Shown here: positions 1-64,000 of the stretch, piece after piece
How the letters are laid out: every line of letters begins with the position of its first letter
Position numbering within the stretch: position 1 is the stretch's first letter
Sequence record: LR694611
From: Escherichia phage rV5_ev158
Length of the DNA: 64,000 bases
Reading direction: 5' to 3' (one strand)
The notes under the pieces: generated by a model
Databases searched by the model: none
Told to the model about the DNA's origin: nothing
Seen by the model: the letters and a program-made list of their open reading frames with translations, nothing else
Position numbers and translations under genes: made by a program

Positions 1-370
1 TATCACAAACACGACGAATAGCCTTGATGTCGAAAAAACCTGTGCGATACCACCCAAGAAAAAGGTTTCGTGCAGTGTCAACATCTACATTGATACCATC
101 AAGAACCTTATCTACAAGATAGCTGTCATCCTTTGGACCAGCGTCCTTAGTGCGAATGTAGTTGCCATCTTTTCCAGGCGACATCTCCTTCTCATCCCCA
201 ACCTGCAGGCCATCATTTGGCGGTGTTAGCCACTTATCCGGATGCTTACGATCACGAGCGTTAGAATGATTACGCTGGAAGCCTGGCTTCCACTTGAAAG
301 TTTTCTCCATCTGTTCTTCATTCTGATAACGTTTTGCAATCTTTTCACGGTCATCTTTGCGTGGACTCAT
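1..370 (-). CDS. hypothetical protein, 5' part only (gene runs off the window start)
   Basis: ATG at ~370 preceded by GGAGG; frame open for ~123 codons to position 1 (MSPRKDDREKIAKRY...); not in ORF track because no stop in window. Confidence 0.5.
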   Translation of the reverse strand, partial: MSPRKDDREKIAKRYQNEEQMEKTFKWKPGFQRNHSNARDRKHPDKWLTPPNDGLQVGDEKEMSPGKDGNYIRTKDAGPKDDSYLVDKVLDGINVDVDTARNLFLGWYRTGFFDIKAIRRVCD

Positions 371-874
371 AGCTGCCTCCTCTTCAAGTTATAGAAAAAC
401 TCACTGTATCACTTTGTAACGAGCTTTTCTATCAAACTGGTGCGATTGCCTTGCCTGGTATAGTTTATATAGCTGTGGAGCGATTTAGGGGCCTTCTTGT
501 ACGTTTCCACACATAAACTTCATCCAAGCTCGCGCGGGAGACTCTCAACCGACTCCTTACGGCGCTGGCAAGCTTTCGTCGGTGGTCCACATTAGTGCTC
601 GGCCTTTGGCCTGCGCTATCGCTTCGCTCCCACACATGATAACAGACCTGCATGTATGCACTTCTGTTATTGTGTGCACTGGGGAGGCCCGGCATCTCGC
701 CCCTCGTAGGCGAGTGCCAATGAAGGGCCGACACTACCAATAGTAAGTAATAAATTTAAAACATAGTACTTAGGATCTAGTATATTCTACATAAGTTAAG
801 TATATGTACTTAGTACCATAAGTACTAGATCTTTTATTTTTTATTATTTAGTTATTTTAGTTATATTCTTTATG

Positions 875-955
875 TGTCCGTATCACGGACAGTTAGTGTC
901 CGTATTACGGGCAGATGTGTCCGCGTGACGGACAGTAGTGTCCGTACCACGGACA
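875..955. promoter_or_regulatory. tandem array of four 17-bp palindromes TGTCCG-N5-CGGACA at 21-22 bp spacing; candidate operator or protein-binding array
   Basis: copies at ~875-891, 897-913 (one arm degenerate), 918-934, 939-955; read directly from sequence. Confidence 0.55.
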
Positions 956-1030
956 GTTAATAGTATCTGTTCCAGGGCGAACATAAAACATACGAATCCT
1001 TATAGTACAGATATTTAAGTTTTTGCTGGT

Positions 1031-1381
1031 CTAACCAGTTGTTGACATTCGAATAACTTCTTCTGGTGGCAAAACTTTGGAAAATGTGCATCTTTTACCT
1101 CTCCCTTGTGTGGATATTTCAACCACTCCTGCACATTCTAAAGTTTTAACGCACGCTGCTGCTTTTGTTTTCTTTATCCCAACATCTGCTGCAATTTTCC
1201 TTGTGCTGGGTGTGAAGCGTGAATTTCCTCCAAGCTTATACCAGTTGTGCAGGTAGCAGTATACGATCTTGTCATACAAGTCAAGAACAACAACCTCCCC
1301 AGTTGTGTCATTCAAAACTTTTGACATAGATAGTATTTCAAGGGGGACTTTAAGATATAGCAGCTTATCCCCATCTTTCAT
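1031..1381 (-). CDS. putative helix-turn-helix DNA-binding protein
   Basis: AGGAG-type RBS before ATG; segment STRKIAADVGIKKTKAAACVKTLECAGVV resembles an HTH/winged-helix motif. Confidence 0.5.
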   Translation of the reverse strand: MKDGDKLLYLKVPLEILSMSKVLNDTTGEVVVLDLYDKIVYCYLHNWYKLGGNSRFTPSTRKIAADVGIKKTKAAACVKTLECAGVVEISTQGRGKRCTFSKVLPPEEVIRMSTTG

Positions 1382-1428
1382 ATCTCCTGATTCTCCTTGT
1401 GTGGCAATTTTCTTTAAAATAGCAGGGA

Positions 1429-1983
1429 TTACTCCCCGCTGTCAATAGCAAGACTCATTGCAATACGGTATGCCTCTTCTAATGGTAAGAGTCTCCCCCA
1501 CACATCCCAACCGACATCAAACTGCCTGCCAAACAACTGCTGTGTGGTTCCGTGAGCATGACCGAACAGTTGGACCGATCCGTGAGGCTTTCTGTTCCAC
1601 TTTGCAAACTGGTAATGGCTCATACAGATCAAATTCTTGTTGTGGCGAAGCTCGTAATAATCTACAACCTCATGACCGAACTCTTTCATAATTCTGACAG
1701 TCGTCCTTGTGTCATGGTTACCACGAACAAGAATAATATGTCCGTTCAACATATTTAGAACATCTGGGAGCAATTTGTTAATATTCTTATCATTAGTGCA
1801 CGCAATATCTCCTAAGTGAAACACAGTGTCTGCAGGTGACACAACAGAGTTCCACTTGGTGATGATCCCCGCATTCATACTGTCAAGATTGTGATCATAC
1901 TGAGATCTGTGTTTTTGACATGAATCAAACTCCATGACCCGCTGGTGGAGAAAGTGTGTGTCGCTTGTTACAAAGTATTTCAT
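1429..1983 (-). CDS. calcineurin-like metallophosphoesterase (putative polynucleotide 3'-phosphatase)
   Basis: motifs SDTHF, HLGD, GNHD; start moved to internal ATG (MKYFVTSDTHF) with GAGGA RBS, in frame with ORF 1429..2088. Confidence 0.7.
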   Translation of the reverse strand: MKYFVTSDTHFLHQRVMEFDSCQKHRSQYDHNLDSMNAGIITKWNSVVSPADTVFHLGDIACTNDKNINKLLPDVLNMLNGHIILVRGNHDTRTTVRIMKEFGHEVVDYYELRHNKNLICMSHYQFAKWNRKPHGSVQLFGHAHGTTQQLFGRQFDVGWDVWGRLLPLEEAYRIAMSLAIDSGE

Positions 1984-1990
1984 ACATTCC

Positions 1991-2401
1991 TCATTTAAGT
2001 TTAATGCAGTTTTTAAGCTGGCGTTCCATACGATCCACAACCTTGTCTGGAACATCATGAATGCTTTTATTACCGTGGCGGTTTTCAACCACGATCACGG
2101 TATAACTATACCCATGACTGATTGCCATGTCAACATATTCCTGCACATGTTTTTCTTTTGTAAACGTATTACTTACCACGATACGGTCGTATCCCATACG
2201 CATCATATCTTCTACGTTATCTTTGCACCATTTTGCTGCGAGTGTTACTTTACTTGCATCCCAGTTGTAATTGCCGTCATCGTCATACCAGAACATGTCG
2301 TTCTCAAAATGTGGATACAGACCCTCTAAAGATAGCGCATTTGCCAGTGTTGATTTGCCAGACCCTGGTAGACCACGCACGATATATAGCATTTTAGACA
2401 T
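1991..2401 (-). CDS. P-loop polynucleotide kinase-like protein
   Basis: Walker A GLPGSGKST near N-terminus; start moved to ATG (MSKMLYIVRG) preceded by GGAGGG, in frame with ORF 1991..2557. Confidence 0.7.
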   Translation of the reverse strand: MSKMLYIVRGLPGSGKSTLANALSLEGLYPHFENDMFWYDDDGNYNWDASKVTLAAKWCKDNVEDMMRMGYDRIVVSNTFTKEKHVQEYVDMAISHGYSYTVIVVENRHGNKSIHDVPDKVVDRMERQLKNCIKLK

Positions 2402-2501
2402 AGTAACCCTCCGTTTTAATTTCAATGATAGTATACCTAACTGTTTTGTTAATTTCAAGTGTTGACACTGGGTTATTTGTGTGGCAGGATAAAGGGACAA
2501 A

Positions 2502-3437
2502 ATGACAAATGAGGAACGTATGATGAAGTATTTTAATGCAGACGACCTGGTTGACAAAGGTCTTGTAACCAGCAGATATTACCCAGATCTTGGGTTAAAG
2601 ATCTATAAATATGCCAGAAAAGTATTCTACAACAACTTATGGCATTTGTCTCCTCGATTACTGGAGTGCCGAGGCATTGTTGTCGGTAATGAAGGAAATG
2701 TTGTGGCATGGCCCTTCACAAAAGTGTTTAACTTGGGAGAAAACTCCACCAACCTGCCTGACAATAAGCTTGTGACGGCGGTAGAGAAAAAGAACGGATT
2801 CCTTGGTGTGGTGTCATCTCATAAAGGTGAACTATTGTTCTCAACAACCGGGTCTCTTGATTCCCCATATTGTAACCTTGCAAAGGAAACCATCCAGGAG
2901 CAATGCGGTAATTTAGATCTTATCAAGAAGGTTATGGGCAATGAAAACATGACATTCATGTTTGAAATTTGTCACCCTTCAGATCCGCATATTGTTCAGG
3001 AAGATCATGGCGCATATTTGATAGGTTGCAGATATAATGATTCTGGAATAATGCTACCAGAAGCCGCTTTAGATGGGATTGCCAAATACCTTGGTGCAAA
3101 ACGTCCTCACACTGTGCGTGAAATTCCGTTCAGCTATGCAAAAGAGTTAGCTGCAGAAACAAGAGGTGAAGGATATATGATTCGTAAGCCTTACTACCCT
3201 TATGATCTGCAGTTGAAGATCAAGTCTCCATACTATCTGGCACGAAAGGCCGTAATGAGGGGTAAAGCTTGGAAGATTTGGGATGATGATATCTTTAAAC
3301 GTGTTGACGAAGAGTTTTACGGCATGGTAAACTTCATTCGTAACAACTACACAGAGGATGTATGGAACTGCCTCCTGGAGCAGGAACGCCGTGAGATACT
3401 TGACTGCTATTTCCACAACGAGGACTATATGCAATGA
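2502..3437 (+). CDS. ATP-dependent RNA ligase-like nucleotidyltransferase
   Basis: ligase motifs I KKNGF (KxNG, no Arg), IV EGYMIRK, V LKIK; start may be the ATG ~18 nt downstream (MMKYF) with GAGGA RBS. Confidence 0.6.
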   Translation: MTNEERMMKYFNADDLVDKGLVTSRYYPDLGLKIYKYARKVFYNNLWHLSPRLLECRGIVVGNEGNVVAWPFTKVFNLGENSTNLPDNKLVTAVEKKNGFLGVVSSHKGELLFSTTGSLDSPYCNLAKETIQEQCGNLDLIKKVMGNENMTFMFEICHPSDPHIVQEDHGAYLIGCRYNDSGIMLPEAALDGIAKYLGAKRPHTVREIPFSYAKELAAETRGEGYMIRKPYYPYDLQLKIKSPYYLARKAVMRGKAWKIWDDDIFKRVDEEFYGMVNFIRNNYTEDVWNCLLEQERREILDCYFHNEDYMQ

Positions 3438-40052: not shown

Positions 40053-40748
40053 CACACAATCAGCTGCCCGGCTAAAGTGCTGGAAGCGCACCTATAACAC
40101 ATCTTTCAACTAAATTTCCTACCACCACAATCACTTACCTACCACACATGACTGTTTGCTTGTTTAGTGAGCAGTCATGCCTTGACATTCTTGCCTATCC
40201 TGATAAAATTAAGTTCTTCTCTTTTCTTTTACCGAGTAATTCGGGTTTTCTGTTCTCTTCGGTTTGAAGGGGTATGGAGATACACCTGAGTGAACAGGGT
40301 GAACAACCGAACCATTGGCTATGGCATTAGCATGGCGAAGCGGACGGGTGACGAAAGAGGGGCCGGAGGACACCAGTCACTGCCATATGATATATGGGTG
40401 ATAACCTGAAGAGTCTGAATAAGTGTTTAAGTACCAGTCAGAGGAAAAGGTGAATGGTAGCCGAAGGGGGATGGGGGGTTTCTTGTATCTTTAATTTGTA
40501 TATTATGTATACACTTGTAAACCAATCTCATCTGAATCTGTTTACCACACAAAGCGGATAGAGACAAATATCACCTATTAAACTTGAATTATTTATAGAA
40601 AATACCACAACACCACTTAAGTCTTTGATTTTACACACAAATCCTACAGATATTCAACCTCCATATTTAACATACTTGTAACATATTCCATACTCTACCT
40701 GTCTGATCAATTTCCCCAACTACATTCTCATATTTTCCCTGTCTGTAC

Positions 40749-40946
40749 TACCCCTGCCCCGCCGGGAGTCCCGTCATATCTGGCTTTCCAGCAAATATCA
40801 CACCCACAAATATCATTGCCTGAAGAGGGTTTCATCCCATAATACCTGCCTTACCTGAAGAGCGCTTCATACACCACGTAAATTTTTTAATTGACCTCCC
40901 CCTGCCCCGCCGGAGAGGTTGGCTTTTCCCACACAGACCTGAAGAG
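40749..40946. repeat. imperfect direct repeats, each starting CCCCTGCCCCGCCGG and ending CCTGAAGAG
   Basis: 9-mer CCTGAAGAG occurs five times between ~39755 and ~40946. Confidence 0.6.
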
Positions 40947-41522
40947 TCAGCCAGAAATATCTGAACAGGCCCAATTCTACCACGATTTTGACCTGACCTA
41001 CAGGGAGGCCCGAAGGGTCTAGCTTTCAGCTAGAGTCCTTGCAGGACCTACAGGAGCGCTGCCAGGCGGACGGAATGGGAATACTTCTCATTCTTATAAC
41101 AATTCTCAAATATCGAGACAGTGAGAGAAATTAATAGGCCAGGCCGTTCACACAGTGGCACAACATTTGCAACCTATTTTGGGTGGATGAATGAGAATAC
41201 CTATCATTGTGAGAACTGTTATCATTACGGGCAATTTAACATAATACCCATTATGCGCACCACCGGCGATACATACAGGGATTGATAACATGGGTTACTG
41301 TTTACGCACATAACAATTATATTTCTTACTATTTGTGTGGGATATAGTTAGCAGCCGATAGATTAGATATTAACCTGCAGACTTCTGACCGTCCAGACGT
41401 CTAAACGCCCACACACCAAGGATTATACATACACTCCTGAATGTAAACAGGGCCGCAAAAATGCTACCATACAAGCTTGTAAATTTTTCATGCAGCACTT
41501 GACAAAGAGGAGAAAAACTTGT

Positions 41523-41648
41523 CTGACATAATGTGACCTAACTGACACAACATGACACTTTTACACACCTATTAGTTTACACACTGGATTGTTTACATTC
41601 CTGATTGTTCACATGCTAACCATTTACATGATTGACTGTTTACACACC
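41523..41648. repeat. iteron-like short repeats: four TGACA-type at ~10 bp spacing, then five TGTTTACA-type at ~16 bp spacing
   Basis: read directly from sequence in ORF-free region. Confidence 0.5.
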
Positions 41649-41656
41649 GATAATCA

Positions 41657-41950
41657 GCCATGCCATTCGTTTGCATGAAAACAATTAACAAGATAACAAT
41701 CGACAAGTTAATAATCTTTCGCTGGCTATGCCAGGTGACTAGGTCACCCCTTCGGGCGTTCCTATGACATAATATAAAAGCAGGGCAACTATTAGCAGAT
41801 CTATAGTTGCCTTGCTTGTTATGTCATGATTAACTAAATACAAGGCAACTATGATCTGATTAATAGTTTGCAGACAAACTATCACGGGGGTGATGGTTAC
41901 TGCTTTTATATTATGTCGCGACTCCGTCGCGCCATGCCATTCGTTTGCAT
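41657..41950. repeat. composite dyad-symmetry element: 20-bp direct repeats flanking an 18-bp perfect inverted repeat and internal palindromes
   Basis: GCCATGCCATTCGTTTGCAT at ~41657 and ~41931; GACATAATATAAAAGCAG (41766-41783) inverted at 41901-41918; internal hairpins GGCAACTAT/ATAGTTGCC, GGTGAC-TAG-GTCACC, CGCGAC-TCC-GTCGCG. Confidence 0.6.
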
Positions 41951-42558
41951 AGTTGCCTTATTGTTACGAATAAAACAATTGCATTGTTAATGATTTCTTA
42001 TCTTTCTCTTAGTCATCTAATGATTCCAGTCAGTATAGTAATGTACAGTAAACATTAGACGACTAAAGATTTCTCTGTTTATGATAACTCATCTTGATAA
42101 TTTCGGACTGTTTACGAAAAATGTTGACACCTGAGCTGATTTATGTTATGCAGTTTACACGAATAATTATTTTATGCAGGTATTGACTATTCCGTTATTC
42201 TGTGGTTGGAATAAATACTTTGCAGGCTATAGAATGGCGTGCGTACGTGAATTCTGAGATCTGGCGGCTATAGTTATACTCGATTTTTCGCGTAGAACAC
42301 GCTTTCGATGCTGTGTAAGTGTATGACTTATAAAGATTTTTAGTTGTTGACAAGATATTGGAGATGTGCATCAGGTTAAAATTTGTGCAATAGCGGCATT
42401 ACGTGCACTTTTGGGAGAGAAAACGGGTAAAAATGGACTTGCTACCACACAATGAAAAATTATGCAATAGTTATTTTCCATGTATATTTGTACAGTATGT
42501 GGGATTGATGGCTAGTCAATTATTCCACTTGCCAGGTAGGGCCGTTTATGGTAGGAGA

Positions 42559-42590
42559 AGAGCAGACAAAAAGAAAGGGGCCTAAGCCCC
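42559..42590 (-). terminator. intrinsic terminator for the minus-strand block (GGGGC-TTAG-GCCCC then T-run on minus strand)
   Basis: hairpin ~20 nt beyond the stop of gene 42611..43030. Confidence 0.55.
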
Positions 42591-42610
42591 TTGATAATTC
42601 AGTTAAAAAA

Positions 42611-57867: not shown

Positions 57868-58491
57868 CTAAAAGTATTCGTAGAGGTATCCATCGGGGGC
57901 TGGAATTTTTTCATGAATGTAGTAATCAACACATATTCCGGTTTCTCTTCTACAAGAATTGTGGGATACCCATTCTTTAAGAACGTTTCCATTCATGTCC
58001 AGCCTTCTTACATTTTTACACCGTCTACCGCTGGTGCTTCTATGCAACAGAATATCCTCCGTCTGCTTGTCTTTATTTTCTCCCCAGGTAGTTAAACGGA
58101 TATTATCAAAAGAGTACCCTTTGAAATCATCTATCCTGTCACAAGAAGGCTTTTTCCTTTTGTCGTATCCGCTGGCTACCCACTGATCATACAACTCTTT
58201 GTAACCGTTCAGGTATAGCCACTCCTTAAACTCTTTTTTGGTGTAAGTCGGAGGAGGGTGGCCTCTTTGCTTGCTGTTGCACTTTTGAGCCTTGTACAGC
58301 ACGCGTATTACACCTTTTTCTGAAGAGTCGTGGGAAAATTGGTCAGCCTCCTTGCTGGCCTTCTTGCAACACTCTTTGCACTTATTAAGATGACCGTCAG
58401 ACATCTTTGGGTGTTTGTAGAACTCGGAGAGGTTTTTCACCTCTCCGCACTTTATGCACCTCTTACAATGCGTGGATTCTGCTTTTGCCAT
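57868..58491 (-). CDS. putative homing endonuclease-like protein (N-terminal zinc ribbon)
   Basis: CKRCIKCGEVKNLSEFYKH...CKEC N-terminus typical of phage mobile endonuclease-associated zinc ribbons; catalytic motif not securely identified. Confidence 0.4.
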   Translation of the reverse strand: MAKAESTHCKRCIKCGEVKNLSEFYKHPKMSDGHLNKCKECCKKASKEADQFSHDSSEKGVIRVLYKAQKCNSKQRGHPPPTYTKKEFKEWLYLNGYKELYDQWVASGYDKRKKPSCDRIDDFKGYSFDNIRLTTWGENKDKQTEDILLHRSTSGRRCKNVRRLDMNGNVLKEWVSHNSCRRETGICVDYYIHEKIPAPDGYLYEYF

Positions 58492-59734
58492 ATTGCAAAC
58501 CTACCGGAGCGAAAGGTATGTCATCACAGAAGTCATACTGCGCCGGATTCTGACCCATCGGGTCATCTTCCTCATCATTTACAGGAGGAGCGTCTACAGT
58601 GTTTTGCTGTGGAGCTGCTTCCTGTTTGGCAGCCTGAGGTTCTTGATGGTCAGTTGACCCAGCACCGTTCTTGATCCAATCGTACAACGGCTCAGCCAGA
58701 TTAGTCAAGACATCTTTTGCTTCTGCAGTAATTGCCGCTGCAAAATCATCAACTTTCGTTTTCTTGTCAATACGGCGACAAGCGTTCAACACCGCATTAC
58801 CGACACTGGCACCTACTTCATCTTCAGTTCGGTTGGTGGCTTGAGCATACTCTTTCTTAAGCTCAATGGTGACTACGTGCAGTGTTTTAGCCACACCTAG
58901 TGGGTCGTCTACCTTAAACCCGCGATCCAGGATGATTTGCAACGCATTGATGCTATGTCCCGTCTCCACACCAATAGGGTCGTAAGAGGATTTACGCTTG
59001 CCACCAGAGCCTTGAGTGCCGTTCTCTGCCTTAGGTGGATAGGCTTTGAAACCGCTGATAATGTTTCCGGTGTCTTTGTCAACAATGGCTGCAACACGAC
59101 CACCTACCACCAGGTCTTTAAGCTGCTCATCAGTAACAACCATGGCACCTTCGCCAATCTTGTGGTCATTAACAGTAACCACGTTGCCAACAATCTGAGT
59201 CACATCGCCATAGATGCGTAAAACGTCCTGATTGGCATTCTGCTGAGGTTTCTGCTTCTGGCCTTGTGATTGTGCACCTTGTTGCTGTTTTTGCTGCTGA
59301 GTCGCTGCTGGAGCCTCTCCTGCACCCAGCTTGACCATCTTAGCCAGTGAGCCTTTGTAATAGGTCTTACCGTTATGCTCGTTTGCCTTCAAAGGGATAT
59401 TTACGATCCATCCCGGCGTTACGGTTTCCCACTTGTCATCAATTTTAACAGAGACAGAGTCTTGATGACCAGGTTTAAGCAGCTTATCACCCATACTGAT
59501 CCAAACTTCTTCACCACCTTGAAGCAGGTTATCAGAGGAATCCAGTTCAGAAATCAGTAAAGAGATGGTGTGGCTGGATTCAATTTTCTTACCTTGCCAC
59601 ACAGTGGTTTTAATACCTGTTGTAGGATCAGCACCTTTGATAGGTTTGATGCTGACACGTTTAATCATGCCGTGAGCCAGTAAAACAGTTTCACGCGGAT
59701 TCATCGGGTTAGCGAATTGTTGAATAACGCTCAT
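58463..59734 (-). CDS. putative ssDNA-binding protein-like
   Basis: Gln-rich linker and acidic DFCDDIPF near the C-terminus resembling the SSB DDDIPF tip, but followed by 15 more residues. Confidence 0.4.
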   Translation of the reverse strand: MSVIQQFANPMNPRETVLLAHGMIKRVSIKPIKGADPTTGIKTTVWQGKKIESSHTISLLISELDSSDNLLQGGEEVWISMGDKLLKPGHQDSVSVKIDDKWETVTPGWIVNIPLKANEHNGKTYYKGSLAKMVKLGAGEAPAATQQQKQQQGAQSQGQKQKPQQNANQDVLRIYGDVTQIVGNVVTVNDHKIGEGAMVVTDEQLKDLVVGGRVAAIVDKDTGNIISGFKAYPPKAENGTQGSGGKRKSSYDPIGVETGHSINALQIILDRGFKVDDPLGVAKTLHVVTIELKKEYAQATNRTEDEVGASVGNAVLNACRRIDKKTKVDDFAAAITAEAKDVLTNLAEPLYDWIKNGAGSTDHQEPQAAKQEAAPQQNTVDAPPVNDEEDDPMGQNPAQYDFCDDIPFAPVGLQYGKSRIHAL

Positions 59735-60099
59735 TATTTGTCTCCTTGTTCTTCGTTAGTGTTCGCCGTGTGTGCAAACCCTGCCTGAATTAATTTGTCC
59801 TGAACTTGAGCCAACAGGCCCATTGCAAAACTTGTGGTCCCAGAGAGAGCCATCAGCATATCTCGTTGTTGAGCTACCCAACCTAAGGCATAGTCCAAAC
59901 GACGATATTTTTCTTCTTCGCGCAGAGCCTGAAATAATTGTTCAGCCTCCGGTTGTTGTGTGAGCTCCTGAAGTCTTCCCATGAAAGAAGAAAGCACTAG
60001 CAAAAGAGACACTTGATCTTTACTTAACCCTAAGAAAAATTCTTGAGGTTGTTCTTGCTCGTTCATCGCAACCGACGCTTGATCGTTCATTTGTTCCAT
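59734..60099 (-). CDS. hypothetical protein
   Basis: ATGA-type coupling to downstream gene. Confidence 0.5.
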   Translation of the reverse strand: MEQMNDQASVAMNEQEQPQEFFLGLSKDQVSLLLVLSSFMGRLQELTQQPEAEQLFQALREEEKYRRLDYALGWVAQQRDMLMALSGTTSFAMGLLAQVQDKLIQAGFAHTANTNEEQGDK

Positions 60100-60182
60100 T
60101 ATGGAATCTCCGATTTTATTTGAACAACATAGAAGGAGACACTATTTTAGCATCCCCTTCTGTAAATTACAATAGGTATTTG

Positions 60183-60428
60183 TTAGCCAATCACTTCAAA
60201 AGTTCCCCAATTCCCGTCCAGCAGGCAGGTGATCGGATCCCCATCGTCGTCAAAGATTTCAAAGTTTTCAGCATCCAGGATGTGGCCCTCGAACACAATA
60301 CTTTCGTCGCCACCACCAGAAATAACAGCGTATTCCTTACCTTGAGTCAAGTTTTGACACCCTTTGCCACCAAAACCTACTTCCACACAACGTACTTTCT
60401 GTCCTGCGCGAGCAACTACTTCAGCCAT
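60183..60428 (-). CDS. hypothetical protein
   Basis: minus-strand ORF. Confidence 0.45.
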   Translation of the reverse strand: MAEVVARAGQKVRCVEVGFGGKGCQNLTQGKEYAVISGGGDESIVFEGHILDAENFEIFDDDGDPITCLLDGNWGTFEVIG

Positions 60429-60445
60429 CTTAAGGTCTCCTGATA

Positions 60446-60766
60446 TTAATCGTCAAGTTCAAAATAGATTTTAACAGCTTCATCAAAGATTGGGATCCCG
60501 ATGTTGTTGATAAGCTGCCAAACTACCATATCTTTACCTGGGTCTGGGAGAATGTCAACCTTCCTCCATGCGCTGTATATCCAGTTTGGACCACCTTCTG
60601 CACTAACTGGCAGATTTTCACCAGCCTCCTGCAGATACTTATACAGCAAAAGATATTCTGGATACTCTAGAACACTGTCCTCTGTAGTATATAGCAGTTC
60701 ACGGTATACTTTTAAGAACCCTGCTGGGGTAATGTTTTCAGTCTTCATTTGCCGCTTCTCCTGCAT
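60446..60766 (-). CDS. hypothetical protein
   Basis: minus-strand ORF. Confidence 0.45.
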   Translation of the reverse strand: MQEKRQMKTENITPAGFLKVYRELLYTTEDSVLEYPEYLLLYKYLQEAGENLPVSAEGGPNWIYSAWRKVDILPDPGKDMVVWQLINNIGIPIFDEAVKIYFELDD

Positions 60767-62595: not shown

Positions 62596-62909
62596 TGATC
62601 AGTCTCCTTCTTGTTAAGTCTGAATACTGCAATAATAGCATTCCCAAGGTGCAGTGTCAAATCATTTCCAAGATACCACAGCATTCCACGGTCATCTTTG
62701 ATGAAAGGGTAGCAATTTGGTGCCTTCTCTTTAATGAAAGGGTGACAATCTGGTGCCTTCCAGACATTGTACACTTTCCCAACCTGAAAGAAATCAGGCC
62801 CTGTTGGGATTTTAGTGCCTGGCCACACTTGAGATACCTGAACACACTCCACCTGCATAATAACAGGGATAGTCATGGATGTAAATGTTTTTGTTGGTTC
62901 TACTACCAT
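62592..62909 (-). CDS. hypothetical protein
   Basis: start set at ATG (MVVEPTK) after AAGAGGAG RBS; in frame with ORF 62592..62999. Confidence 0.4.
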   Translation of the reverse strand: MVVEPTKTFTSMTIPVIMQVECVQVSQVWPGTKIPTGPDFFQVGKVYNVWKAPDCHPFIKEKAPNCYPFIKDDRGMLWYLGNDLTLHLGNAIIAVFRLNKKETDQ

Positions 62910-62958: not shown

Positions 62959-64000
62959 TTAGTGACAATCACCCCAATTACGACCACACAGGTATTCACC
63001 TGTGATCTGGAACGGGACGCCCATCATTTTAGAAGCTTGCCAGAAGCAATGCACCACCATTTCACCCACAGGGCTCCAGATAAGTTCAAGCTTTCCGTCA
63101 TCGTTCAGGATAGGATCGTACACCGTGTTTCCGTCTCTGTCAACCACTTCGTTTCCGTCCTCATCCTTGCGTGCCTTTTTGTACTTATGACCGTCGAACA
63201 CATGAAGTTTGGCCTCCTGCTCTGCCTTAAATGCTTCCAGTTCTTCGATTGTGTCGAAGGTGTACACAGTCTTATACTTCGGTGTGTCAGGGACTTGAAG
63301 CTGATATTCGTCATGGTAATAGATAATACGACGAACACCTTCATCGTACCACCCACGCTTCACCATTTGATGGTGCATGAGTATCCCAACTAAGTCACAC
63401 AACGATGCGCCGCCATTTTGTTGGTATGCATTAAGTAAAGAGTGTTTAGATCGGGTCCAGATAGCATGACCATCAAAAGAGTAGATAAACTTCTTACCCG
63501 TTGCTTCCCAGAATTTCTCCAGATCTTCTTTACGCCCCTTAAGACCAGGGTTGGCATCCCAGAGTGCATCGATTACCCTTTGTCCCAACTCTGGAGAGAT
63601 GTCCAGCATATCTGCAACTTTATCTTTTTGTGCCCCATACATAACCCCATACGTGATAGGTTTACCGTCGTTACGAGACACCTCTCTACCTGCTACTTTT
63701 GTATATGCCTCAGCATTGTTTTGGTGTGCGTCCCCGTTACTTACAACATCGTAATACAGGCCGTTGTCGAACTCAAAGGCACCCCAAGCCCCGATAAGCT
63801 GCTCTAAGTTGGACCCGTCAATACCGATCTCAAAGTATCCTGGAGGAACACCCCACAGACTACGCATCTCTTTACCCATAACCACTTTAGGAGATGGTTT
63901 AGGCATGTTTGCACAAATACTGTGTTTCTGTCGGGAAGTGTTTGTTAATCCAGAACTTTTAGCAGGAAGCTTATGGTCAATCTTCAAACGTGGGTGATTA
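62959..64000 (-). CDS. family A DNA polymerase, C-terminal palm/fingers portion (gene runs off the window end)
   Basis: motif A IGIDGSNLEQL, motif B RNDGKPITYGVMYG, motif C YYHDEYQLQV; frame stays open to position 64000. Confidence 0.8.
   Translation of the reverse strand, partial: NHPRLKIDHKLPAKSSGLTNTSRQKHSICANMPKPSPKVVMGKEMRSLWGVPPGYFEIGIDGSNLEQLIGAWGAFEFDNGLYYDVVSNGDAHQNNAEAYTKVAGREVSRNDGKPITYGVMYGAQKDKVADMLDISPELGQRVIDALWDANPGLKGRKEDLEKFWEATGKKFIYSFDGHAIWTRSKHSLLNAYQQNGGASLCDLVGILMHHQMVKRGWYDEGVRRIIYYHDEYQLQVPDTPKYKTVYTFDTIEELEAFKAEQEAKLHVFDGHKYKKARKDEDGNEVVDRDGNTVYDPILNDDGKLELIWSPVGEMVVHCFWQASKMMGVPFQITGEYLCGRNWGDCH

Follow-up and report, generated by a model that had tools for sequence, protein, structure and literature searches.

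Iteron-type origins and the rV5-like phages

In the replication origin of bacteriophage lambda (NC_001416), four TCCCTC-N5-GAGGGA iterons lie within gene O at spacings of 20, 24 and 23 bp, with an AT-rich tract directly after them. Recruitment of the replisome is ascribed to the C-terminal domain both in lambda O and in RepA_N proteins. The iteron plasmids RK2 (oriV), P1 (oriR/incA) and pPS10 carry phased repeats of about 17–22 bp beside an AT-rich DNA-unwinding element, sometimes with a GC-rich segment beyond it. The Rep proteins of such plasmids have two domains and usually bind as monomers to iterons without symmetry, and DnaA boxes are usual. Staphylococcal RepA_N proteins (pSK41, pTZ2162) belong to Gram-positive plasmids, have host-specific C-terminal domains and bind as dimers to iterons with inverted sub-repeats. 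RepA of the Vibrio cholerae PLE, a satellite dependent on phage ICP1 for its replication machinery, is also of the RepA_N type; EMSA and genetics showed its binding to semi-palindromic iterons that are needed for replication (PMC7145576). These iterons are tandem repeats bound by the dimeric N-terminal domain of RepA (PMC7145576, PMC8263062), and the RepA_N domain and its iterons covary as a module (PMC8263062). RepA_N-like domains are also found in proteins that are not initiators, for example in the Odn anti-satellite nucleases.

The 2013 genome paper on phage rV5 searched for an origin by GC skew and located none, and no later report locating a Vequintavirus replication origin was found in the literature searched. 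We analysed a 64,000-nt stretch (the window) of Escherichia phage rV5_ev158 (LR694611), a virulent rV5-like myovirus of the genus Vequintavirus with a genome of 138,171 bp; position 1 of the window corresponds to position 63,950 of the genome record. A palindrome array at positions 875–955 is a candidate, and in our judgement probably, the iteron set of a lambda-type replication origin of this phage. An origin was absent from the roles offered by the initial annotation of this DNA.

A phased palindrome array beside a winged-helix gene

The initial annotation had described four tandem 17-bp palindromes at 875–955 with a periodicity of 21–22 bp. All four were found, one of them imperfect. Iteron 1 (875–891; TGTCCG-TATCA-CGGACA, TGTCCGTATCACGGACA) has perfect arms and adjoins an AT-rich tract, and iteron 2 (897–913; TGTCCG-TATTA-CGGGCA, TGTCCGTATTACGGGCA) carries a single arm mismatch, which is kept among relatives. 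Iteron 3 (918–934; TGTCCG-CGTGA-CGGACA, TGTCCGCGTGACGGACA) is followed by iteron 4 (939–955; TGTCCG-TACCA-CGGACA, TGTCCGTACCACGGACA), the copy nearest the winged-helix gene. The start-to-start spacing is 22, 21 and 21 bp, and Tandem Repeats Finder delimits the repeat to 874–957 (period 21, 4.0 copies, score 103). That the sites share one face of the helix, as had been proposed, agrees with simple arithmetic, 21–22 bp being about two turns. The conserved unit extends to 19 bp, GTGTCCG-N5-CGGACAG.

Allowing up to two mismatches, the palindrome matches eight times in the 64 kb compared to 1.02 ± 0.96 times in shuffled sequences, none of which reached eight. The search of the complete 138,171-bp genome that the initial annotation had suggested returned four palindromes with no or one mismatch, all within the array. 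Host regulator sites were considered as the identity of the array and rejected: CRP sites (TGTGA-N6-TCACA) and LexA sites (CTGT-N8-ACAG) have layouts that do not fit the 6-N5-6 spacing.

The array is intergenic and lies 3′ of the gene at 1031–1381, just beyond its end as first annotated; this gene is on the minus strand and its stop codon is 76 bp away. The 659-bp intergenic region (372–1030) separates it from the gene of a 192-aa protein without an assigned role (start at 370; 2–370 in the window). From high to low coordinates the minus strand carries the genes for a PNK-like ATPase (1991–2401), a metallophosphoesterase (1429–1983) and a 116-aa helix-turn-helix (HTH) protein (1031–1381), then the intergenic region and the minus-strand gene of the 192-aa protein, beyond which small genes, six tRNAs and finally the packaging and structural block follow. 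The divergent junction with a plus-strand early/middle block is located at about 2402–2501.

Four 6-N5-6 palindromes at roughly two-turn spacing with an AT-rich flank are common to the lambda origin and the rV5 array. In lambda, however, the iterons lie inside gene O, whereas those of rV5 lie outside the gene. The PLE origin has three iterons of about 30 bp that converge on a poly-A tract, while the rV5 sites measure 17–19 bp and have mixed centres (TATCA, TATTA, CGTGA, TACCA) that are not poly-A; semi-palindromic direct repeats are present here. Unlike typical plasmid iterons, the rV5 sites are dyad-symmetric, no DnaA box accompanies them, and the protein encoded beside them has a single domain.

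Conservation in Vequintavirus and other Vequintavirinae

Region 300–1500 is 100% identical in Escherichia phage rV5_ev168 (LR694610.1) and 90–98% identical in 117 further Vequintavirus records. The intergenic regions of nine diverse Vequintavirus sequences were aligned and variable columns were counted. These made up 33% of the spacer between array and gene, 18% of a GC-rich block at 465–740, 7.5% of the AT-rich tract and 6% of the array. Within the array none of the 48 half-site positions varied, compared to 5 of the 20 centre positions (Fisher p = 0.0015). In a metagenomic relative with a 71% identical protein, spacer and flanks have diverged, while CTGTCCG-TCACA-CGGACAG is kept and the next unit follows 21 bp on. 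Judged by these alignments, purifying selection has left the pattern that characterises dimer-binding sites. The array is genuine, exceeds chance expectation and is selectively constrained.

Most phages have four copies, nomo and A147 have three, and YN3 has two. These differences are exact deletions of 21 or 42 bp, which removed iterons 2–3 or 3–4. Changes in copy number by exact units (4, 3, 2) are the behaviour of an iteron array and speak for an origin; the existence of the two-copy phage YN3 shows that four copies are not required.

In further genera of the Vequintavirinae the arrangement recurs with other repeats. Mydovirus VLCpiM5b encodes a 105-aa distant homologue of the HTH protein (pairwise E 8e-6; phrog_8102, 'replication initiation protein'), whose gene is located at a divergent junction beside TGCTCA dyads and an AT-rich AGATCT tract. 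In Seunavirus SSE121 an unannotated 120-aa winged-helix ORF with a weak PHROG match ('DnaD-like helicase loader') adjoins ATTCCC-N4-GGGAAT dyads and an AT-rich tract. The SSE121 locus also holds a winged-helix–nuclease fusion beside its own dyad repeats. While the dyads differ, AAAACAT..GATCT and TATATTCTACA-type motifs are common to the AT-rich tracts of the three Vequintavirinae genera, as is a conserved −10-like motif, TGTAGAATATA. The pattern across genera would be that of a conserved unwinding or entry region combined with lineage-specific binding sites.

The 116-aa protein resembles the DNA-binding domain of RepA_N initiators

The gene at 1031–1381 encodes a winged-helix protein of 116 aa that would consist of a stand-alone RepA_N-like/HTH_36/DUF6945 domain. 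It belongs to phrog_12838, 'replication initiation protein' (E 2.5e-80), with weaker matches to other initiator PHROGs, and the label 'replication initiation protein' given by annotation pipelines is a transfer from PHROG. The Pfam models DUF6945 (27.1 bits, cut-off 28) and HTH_36 (24.5 bits, cut-off 25) scored just under their cut-offs, and the protein matched neither the Pfam RepA_N model nor Phage_rep_O. Structure 4RO3, the N-terminal DNA-binding domain of PLE RepA (PMC7145576), was the sole significant match in a sequence search of the PDB (phmmer E 1.4e-6; profile E 4.6e-12).

An alignment-based AlphaFold model reached a pLDDT of 80, whereas the single-sequence model (pLDDT 42) was unusable. 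Foldseek searches with the alignment-based model again placed 4RO3 first (E 1.7e-5, TM 0.67), so PLE RepA is the closest solved relative. The N-terminal domains of staphylococcal RepA_N proteins came next (4PQL, 4PT7 and 5KBJ, the last a Rep–DNA complex; 90–114 columns aligned, E 4e-4 to 2e-3). They share the fold, but TM is only about 0.5–0.56 and phmmer found no significant similarity (E about 1.2). Most generic winged helices of the MarR/LexA type aligned over about 57–91 columns with poorer scores. Profiles and model together indicate a RepA_N/DnaD-N winged-helix fold, and on these comparisons the DNA-binding domain of a validated initiator has a stand-alone homologue in the 116-aa protein. 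It presumably binds the iterons.

The protein stops after the winged helix. PLE RepA has a C-terminal domain and the rV5 protein corresponds to the N-terminal domain alone. Similarly, lambda O comprises 299 aa while the rV5 protein lacks a C-terminal domain of the P-binding type, and between the two no homology was detectable (hhalign probability 0.04), even though both loci would encode their cognate winged-helix protein at the origin, which for rV5 is presumed. The 192-aa protein encoded at 2–370 was considered as the missing C-terminal domain and dismissed; it matches no Pfam model and does not resemble the array-bearing ORFs described below.

The family is narrow, as an exhaustive HMMER search of 1.84 billion representatives gave only 10 matches at E ≤ 1e-3. 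The relatives found by a word-indexed protein search all have at least 86% identity, and a search of IMG/VR with the protein gave no match.

In most GenBank records the gene is labelled 'putative transcriptional regulator'. This label and the restriction to a DNA-binding domain would suit a regulatory array, in which the winged-helix protein controls transcription or replication from the four palindromes. The bare domain also counts against an origin, since the protein might be a regulator and not an initiator, as do the sub-cut-off Pfam scores and the presence of RepA_N-like domains in non-initiators. We regard a regulatory array as rather unlikely; the generic label is less supported than the specific homology to an initiator domain.

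The same palindromes in initiator-like genes of other phage and bacterial contigs

A scan of public collections for the palindrome in two adjacent copies found it on 8 viral contigs and on 13 contigs from bacterial genomes or MAGs, with about 0.5 chance matches expected in the bacterial set by our own estimate. The arrays have 2–7 copies, mostly 20–25 bp apart, in DNA of 40–73% GC. In eight loci (L028, L038–L042, L044 and L045) the array is located in the linker of an ORF of 284–420 aa, directly after an N-terminal winged helix, and L043 apparently contains the same kind of ORF as L042. The other loci of the scan carry two to four copies, and among those checked the containing ORFs looked spurious. 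The eight loci, distant carriers of the TGTCCG array, reproduce the entire lambda arrangement, in which the linker of the initiator gene accommodates the iterons.

Several features connect these ORFs to replication and to the rV5 family. L040 and L044 match O-like, DnaD-like and 'replication initiation' PHROGs, and L028 scores above the Pfam cut-off for HTH_36. RusA and Rad52 genes are adjacent on contigs of the L042/L044 type. A profile of the N-termini of the array-bearing ORFs aligned with the rV5-family profile (hhalign probability 94%, E 1e-7), and for L028 hmmsearch gave an E of 3.6e-8. The iteron centres CGTGG and TATTG of L038 also occur in variants of the rV5 group. Arrays identical to that of rV5, inside initiator-like genes of replication modules, argue against a regulatory array.

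A cyanophage homologue of the L044 protein is likewise built from an N-terminal domain, linker repeats, an A-rich tract and a C-terminal domain. Its repeats differ, as would be expected if iterons follow the specificity of the protein. L017 and L018 (182–217 aa) and the initiator of cyanophage MED4-184 were examined as further members and set aside, because they share the architecture but have different repeats and hence not the same specificity.

We tentatively suggest, as a possibility below even chance, that TGTCCG-N5-CGGACA arrays mark a widespread, undescribed specificity class of origins, of which rV5-like phages would carry a 'split' form. Such a class would comprise phage and plasmid origins, with hosts ranging from E. 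coli to Myxococcales, Treponema and Planctomycetota. The RepA_N/HTH_36-like domain that binds them would diverge fast while its DNA target is conserved. In the split form a stand-alone origin-binding domain of 116 aa would act without a recruiting domain, and the iterons would lie outside the gene.

The same comparison bears on a further explanation, namely that the locus is a piece of a degraded lambda-O-like gene, left over or put to new use, the ancestral gene of N-terminal domain, iterons and C-terminal domain having been split. The piece might, for instance, compete with or titrate the initiator of a satellite or co-infecting phage that shares the iterons, and the phage itself would start replication elsewhere or through recombination. 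In the relatives the array is inside a long ORF, while here it is intergenic and the protein has no C-terminal domain. RepA_N-like domains are known from phage–satellite conflicts, those of E. coli phages included, and the fusion protein of SSE121 beside its own repeats fits such a role; so do the viability of a phage with two copies and the presence of a second repeat-rich non-coding region. We nevertheless consider a remnant improbable. Half-sites and AT-rich tract are under strong purifying selection, and no DNA match to the array or the gene was found in 5,426 complete E. coli genomes, so that neither a candidate satellite target nor a prophage source was seen there. An active origin, moreover, needs pairing with AT-rich DNA, and the array adjoins the most AT-rich segment of the genome.

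The AT-rich tract and the GC-rich block

The AT-rich tract at 741–873 is a candidate DNA-unwinding element and contains GTACTTAG/AGTACT repeats, two GATC sites and GATCTTTTATTTT. The AT-rich neighbour full of AGTACT dyads reported in the initial annotation is therefore borne out, with 20% GC at 751–850 and with AGTACT and GTACTTAG dyads present. The 100-bp window with the lowest GC content of the whole genome (774–873; 19% compared to a mean of 43.7%) directly abuts the array. GATCTTTTATTTT at 828–840 is the only perfect match in the 64 kb to GATCTnTTnTTTT, which we take to be the 13-mer consensus of E. coli oriC; the match was noticed post hoc and on its own is weak support for an origin. DnaA boxes (TTATNCACA) occur four times in the 64 kb, which equals the chance expectation, and none is near the array. 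The lack of nearby DnaA boxes counts against an origin, as does the location of the iterons outside the gene, in contrast to the related arrays.

The AT-rich tract is conserved at the level of sequence and not just of composition, which could reflect a promoter or another binding site. In the annotation of one relative PhagePromoter indeed called a promoter at about 845–852. On the far side of the tract, a conserved ORF-poor block at 465–740 is GC-rich (55–58%). It folds unusually stably (z = −3.1 and −3.3 on the two strands), and its plus-strand GC skew is −0.09 to −0.20, which would make a transcript that crosses the array mildly G-rich there. Whether the block is part of the origin is uncertain; it might give a structured transcript, form an R-loop segment or correspond to a GC-rich flank as in RK2. 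A search of 1–3000 against Rfam found no known RNA family. The Listeria RNA rli43 appeared with 26.6 bits, the gathering score being 100, and was discarded as an AT-driven chance match.

Genome setting and transcription

A sigma-70-like promoter with a TG element (TTGACA-18 nt-TATTTT; 1445–1416, minus strand), identified by consensus match only and the sole one detected, lies just 5′ of the winged-helix gene, and its transcripts would cross the gene, the iterons and the AT-rich tract. No sigma-70-like promoter was found in 372–1030 by the consensus scan, which does not reach phage-specific promoters. No intrinsic terminator was detected in 300–1500, and the palindromes of the array are thus not T-tailed terminator hairpins.

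The initial annotation had proposed cooperative operators or centromere-like sites. The underlying notion of phased, dimer-type binding sites tied to an HTH gene stands, while neither of the two roles is favoured. An operator is contradicted by the position of the array 3′ of the gene, by the lack of an overlapping sigma-70-like promoter and by the lack of a second site in the genome. A regulatory array could take other forms. It could act as a roadblock or terminator between the early PNK–phosphoesterase–HTH operon and the downstream genes and tRNA cluster, as an upstream site through which a promoter in the AT-rich tract is activated or repressed, or as a copy-control locus 3′ of the rep gene. 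In plasmid P1, the iterons 3′ of rep act as such a locus (incA). The array indeed sits where an early-looking operon gives way to the genes towards the tRNAs and the structural module, and without an intrinsic terminator in 300–1500 another stop signal would be needed there. The promoter predicted at about 845–852 in a relative and the −10-like TGTAGAATATA in three genera would fit as well. However, the array sites themselves overlap no sigma-70-like promoter, the array is more than 100 bp upstream of the sole −10-like motif, and with no second target in the genome there is no regulon.

A role in partition or packaging, as a parS-like centromere of an episome or as a pac site recognised by the terminase, appears very improbable. 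Such sites typically combine phased repeats with bent AT-rich DNA, and in transcription order the array is upstream of the packaging and structural block. The only match in a plasmid collection is a complete Vequintavirus genome; its record, a circular 'plasmid' of 137.6 kb from an E. coli isolate, hints at a carrier state. The array of L028 adjoins a ParA gene. On the other hand, no gene of the ParA/ParB (or ParM/ParR) type is annotated among the 218 features of LR694610.1, as judged from the annotation only, and the same absence of annotated ParA/ParB-type genes speaks against the centromere proposed initially. The large terminase gene (terL) is about 4.3 kb from the array, with tRNAs and five small genes in between, and the relatives of the 116-aa protein are DNA-binding domains of initiators and not ParB or TerS. 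Vequintavirus records also begin at many different positions, which suggests that the genome is circularly permuted and lacks a fixed end at this locus.

The global minimum of the cumulative GC skew is at record position 66,390, which is 1.5 kb from the array at the divergent transcription junction. This gives weak support for an origin, because the minimum coincides with the switch in transcription direction and is confounded by it. Elsewhere in the window, an ORF-free, repeat-rich region of 2.5 kb extends over 40,053–42,610. It is a candidate for an alternative or second origin.

A proposed model for a candidate rV5 origin

An iteron set of a lambda-type origin is the reading that we favour for the array, based on the homology of the protein to PLE RepA, the occurrence of the array in O-like genes, the AT-rich tract and the lambda-like geometry of four 6-N5-6 sites. 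From these features we infer binding of the protein to its sites, unwinding, helicase loading and origin activity. The 116-aa protein would be made early from its own sigma-70-like promoter (1445–1416), and a dimer would bind each palindrome. Four dimers two helical turns apart on one face of the DNA could bend or wrap it, comparable to the lambda O-some or a RepA_N–iteron complex, and the resulting stress would open the adjoining AT-rich tract at 741–873.

The phage encodes its own gp4-like primase-helicase and a T7-like polymerase, and in contrast to lambda no P/DnaC-like loader is encoded next to the array locus. Primase-helicase and polymerase would load at the opened tract, possibly aided by transcription into the origin, and replication would proceed bidirectionally (theta). 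Since the protein has no recruiting domain, loading must go by another route. Speculatively, the primase-helicase may load itself, or a transcript or R-loop over the AT-rich and GC-rich blocks may serve as the entry point.

As a kind of element, such an array is already known. It is undescribed for this phage group in the literature searched, and its split arrangement is unusual. Among the papers searched, none connects TGTCCG/CGGACA half-sites with iterons of a relevant system. The repeats of the array are marked in a few GenBank records, without interpretation.

Implications for rV5-like phages

Phages of the rV5 type are widely isolated and are used in E. coli O157 typing, in biocontrol and in therapy work. 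If the proposal is true, a defined origin together with its binding protein would provide a handle for engineering, for instance through ori-plasmids that are amplified upon infection, and would aid the understanding of replication timing. It would also help to read defence and satellite systems that target origins, RepA_N-like domains being already known as weapons in phage–satellite conflicts. Beyond this group, an iteron that recurs across phyla in lambda-O-like genes would offer a natural series for the divergence of initiators with a fixed DNA target, and the rV5 case would, if true, illustrate how an initiator gene can separate from its iterons.

Repeat array and database records

Several short-read assemblies (loci L016, L023 and L024) stop inside the array of TGTCCG-N5-CGGACA palindromes or just beyond it, and the deposited genome MG065672.1 (matches H90 and H131) is linearised exactly at the array edge, at window position ~959/960. 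Assembly evidently fails at the 21-bp repeats, so that some of the array copy numbers taken from deposited genomes may be unreliable.

A total of 18 'Campylobacter phage' records (host C. jejuni) show 91-98% identity to Escherichia coli Vequintaviruses over the array locus. Host misattribution or contamination probably accounts for these labels; phage A147, the only record of this set that was opened, is marked UNVERIFIED. Furthermore, a complete Vequintavirus genome (CP057073.1, locus L047; 137,565 bp, circular) from an E. coli isolate of cattle faeces is filed as 'plasmid pRHB39-C03_2', which suggests either that the phage persists in a carrier state or by pseudolysogeny, or that its DNA was co-purified with the culture.

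Non-coding elements and other features of the genome

A GC-rich, conserved and ORF-poor block (window 465-740), known from Vequintavirus only, separates the AT-rich tract next to the array from the next gene. Its GC content is 55-58% compared to a genome mean of 44%, and its fold stability lies far above that of shuffled sequences on both strands (z -3.1 and -3.3). The block includes a long hairpin (633-676), from which 18 bp are deleted in phage A147. No Rfam family matched this block, and BASEL phage records have small 'hypothetical proteins' annotated within the corresponding sequence.

The gene with its start at position 370 has an inverted repeat with 12-nt arms and an 18-nt loop (window 391-432) in its 5′ leader. 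A second occurrence of its CTCGTTACA(A/G)AG motif was observed in the phi92-like phage EmilieFrey (L015 1416-1507). There the motif is likewise part of an inverted repeat, located directly upstream of bas61_0253, the first plus-strand gene. The two repeats may represent a common regulatory element.

A 2.5-kb region without any ORF of at least 60 aa (window 40053-42610) is located at the convergent junction between the two big gene blocks, where the rV5 paper places its 'non-coding' box. The region harbours TGTTTACA-type direct repeats with a 16-nt period (41560-41644), an exact 20-nt direct repeat (copies at 41657 and 41931) and inverted repeats of the GGCAACTAT/ATAGTTGCC type, among them a perfect pair of 18 nt (41766-41783/41900-41917). 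An Rfam match to this region was not obtained. Its possible roles are those of a second origin, a terminus or an ncRNA region.

The gene for the large terminase (L005 8095-10525, record 58095-60525), which lies outside the window, is annotated as a two-piece join and contains an endonuclease VII-like ORF. This suggests that an intron or intein encoding a homing endonuclease interrupts the gene. At window 62695-62760, a 33-bp unit is duplicated in tandem (2.0 copies, 87% matches, TRF score 104).

Other winged-helix genes and distant homologues of the 116-aa protein

In the Salmonella phage SSE121, a Seunavirus (locus L014, 1713-2860), an annotation gap of 710 bp between genes holds an unannotated winged-helix ORF of 120 aa (2282-2644, minus strand; phrog_8453), which has a weak DnaD-like match. 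The neighbouring gp228, a fusion of a winged-helix domain and an endonuclease (phrog_681), resembles Odn-type origin-directed nucleases. Dyads of the form ATTCCC-N4-GGGAAT lie next to both, as does an AT tract rich in AGATCT.

Distant homologues of the 116-aa protein with lengths of 182-217 aa (P0011, P0012, P0020 and P0021; loci L017 and L018) are encoded at divergent junctions with AT-rich DNA, together with 22-bp direct repeats that differ in sequence from the TGTCCG array. These proteins are extended at the C terminus, where they have an acidic end (P0011, ...DEDPDAPF; P0012, ...EAPF; P0020 and P0021, ...EPF). This end resembles the C-terminal tail of SSB (DDDIPF), a likeness that hints at replisome contacts.
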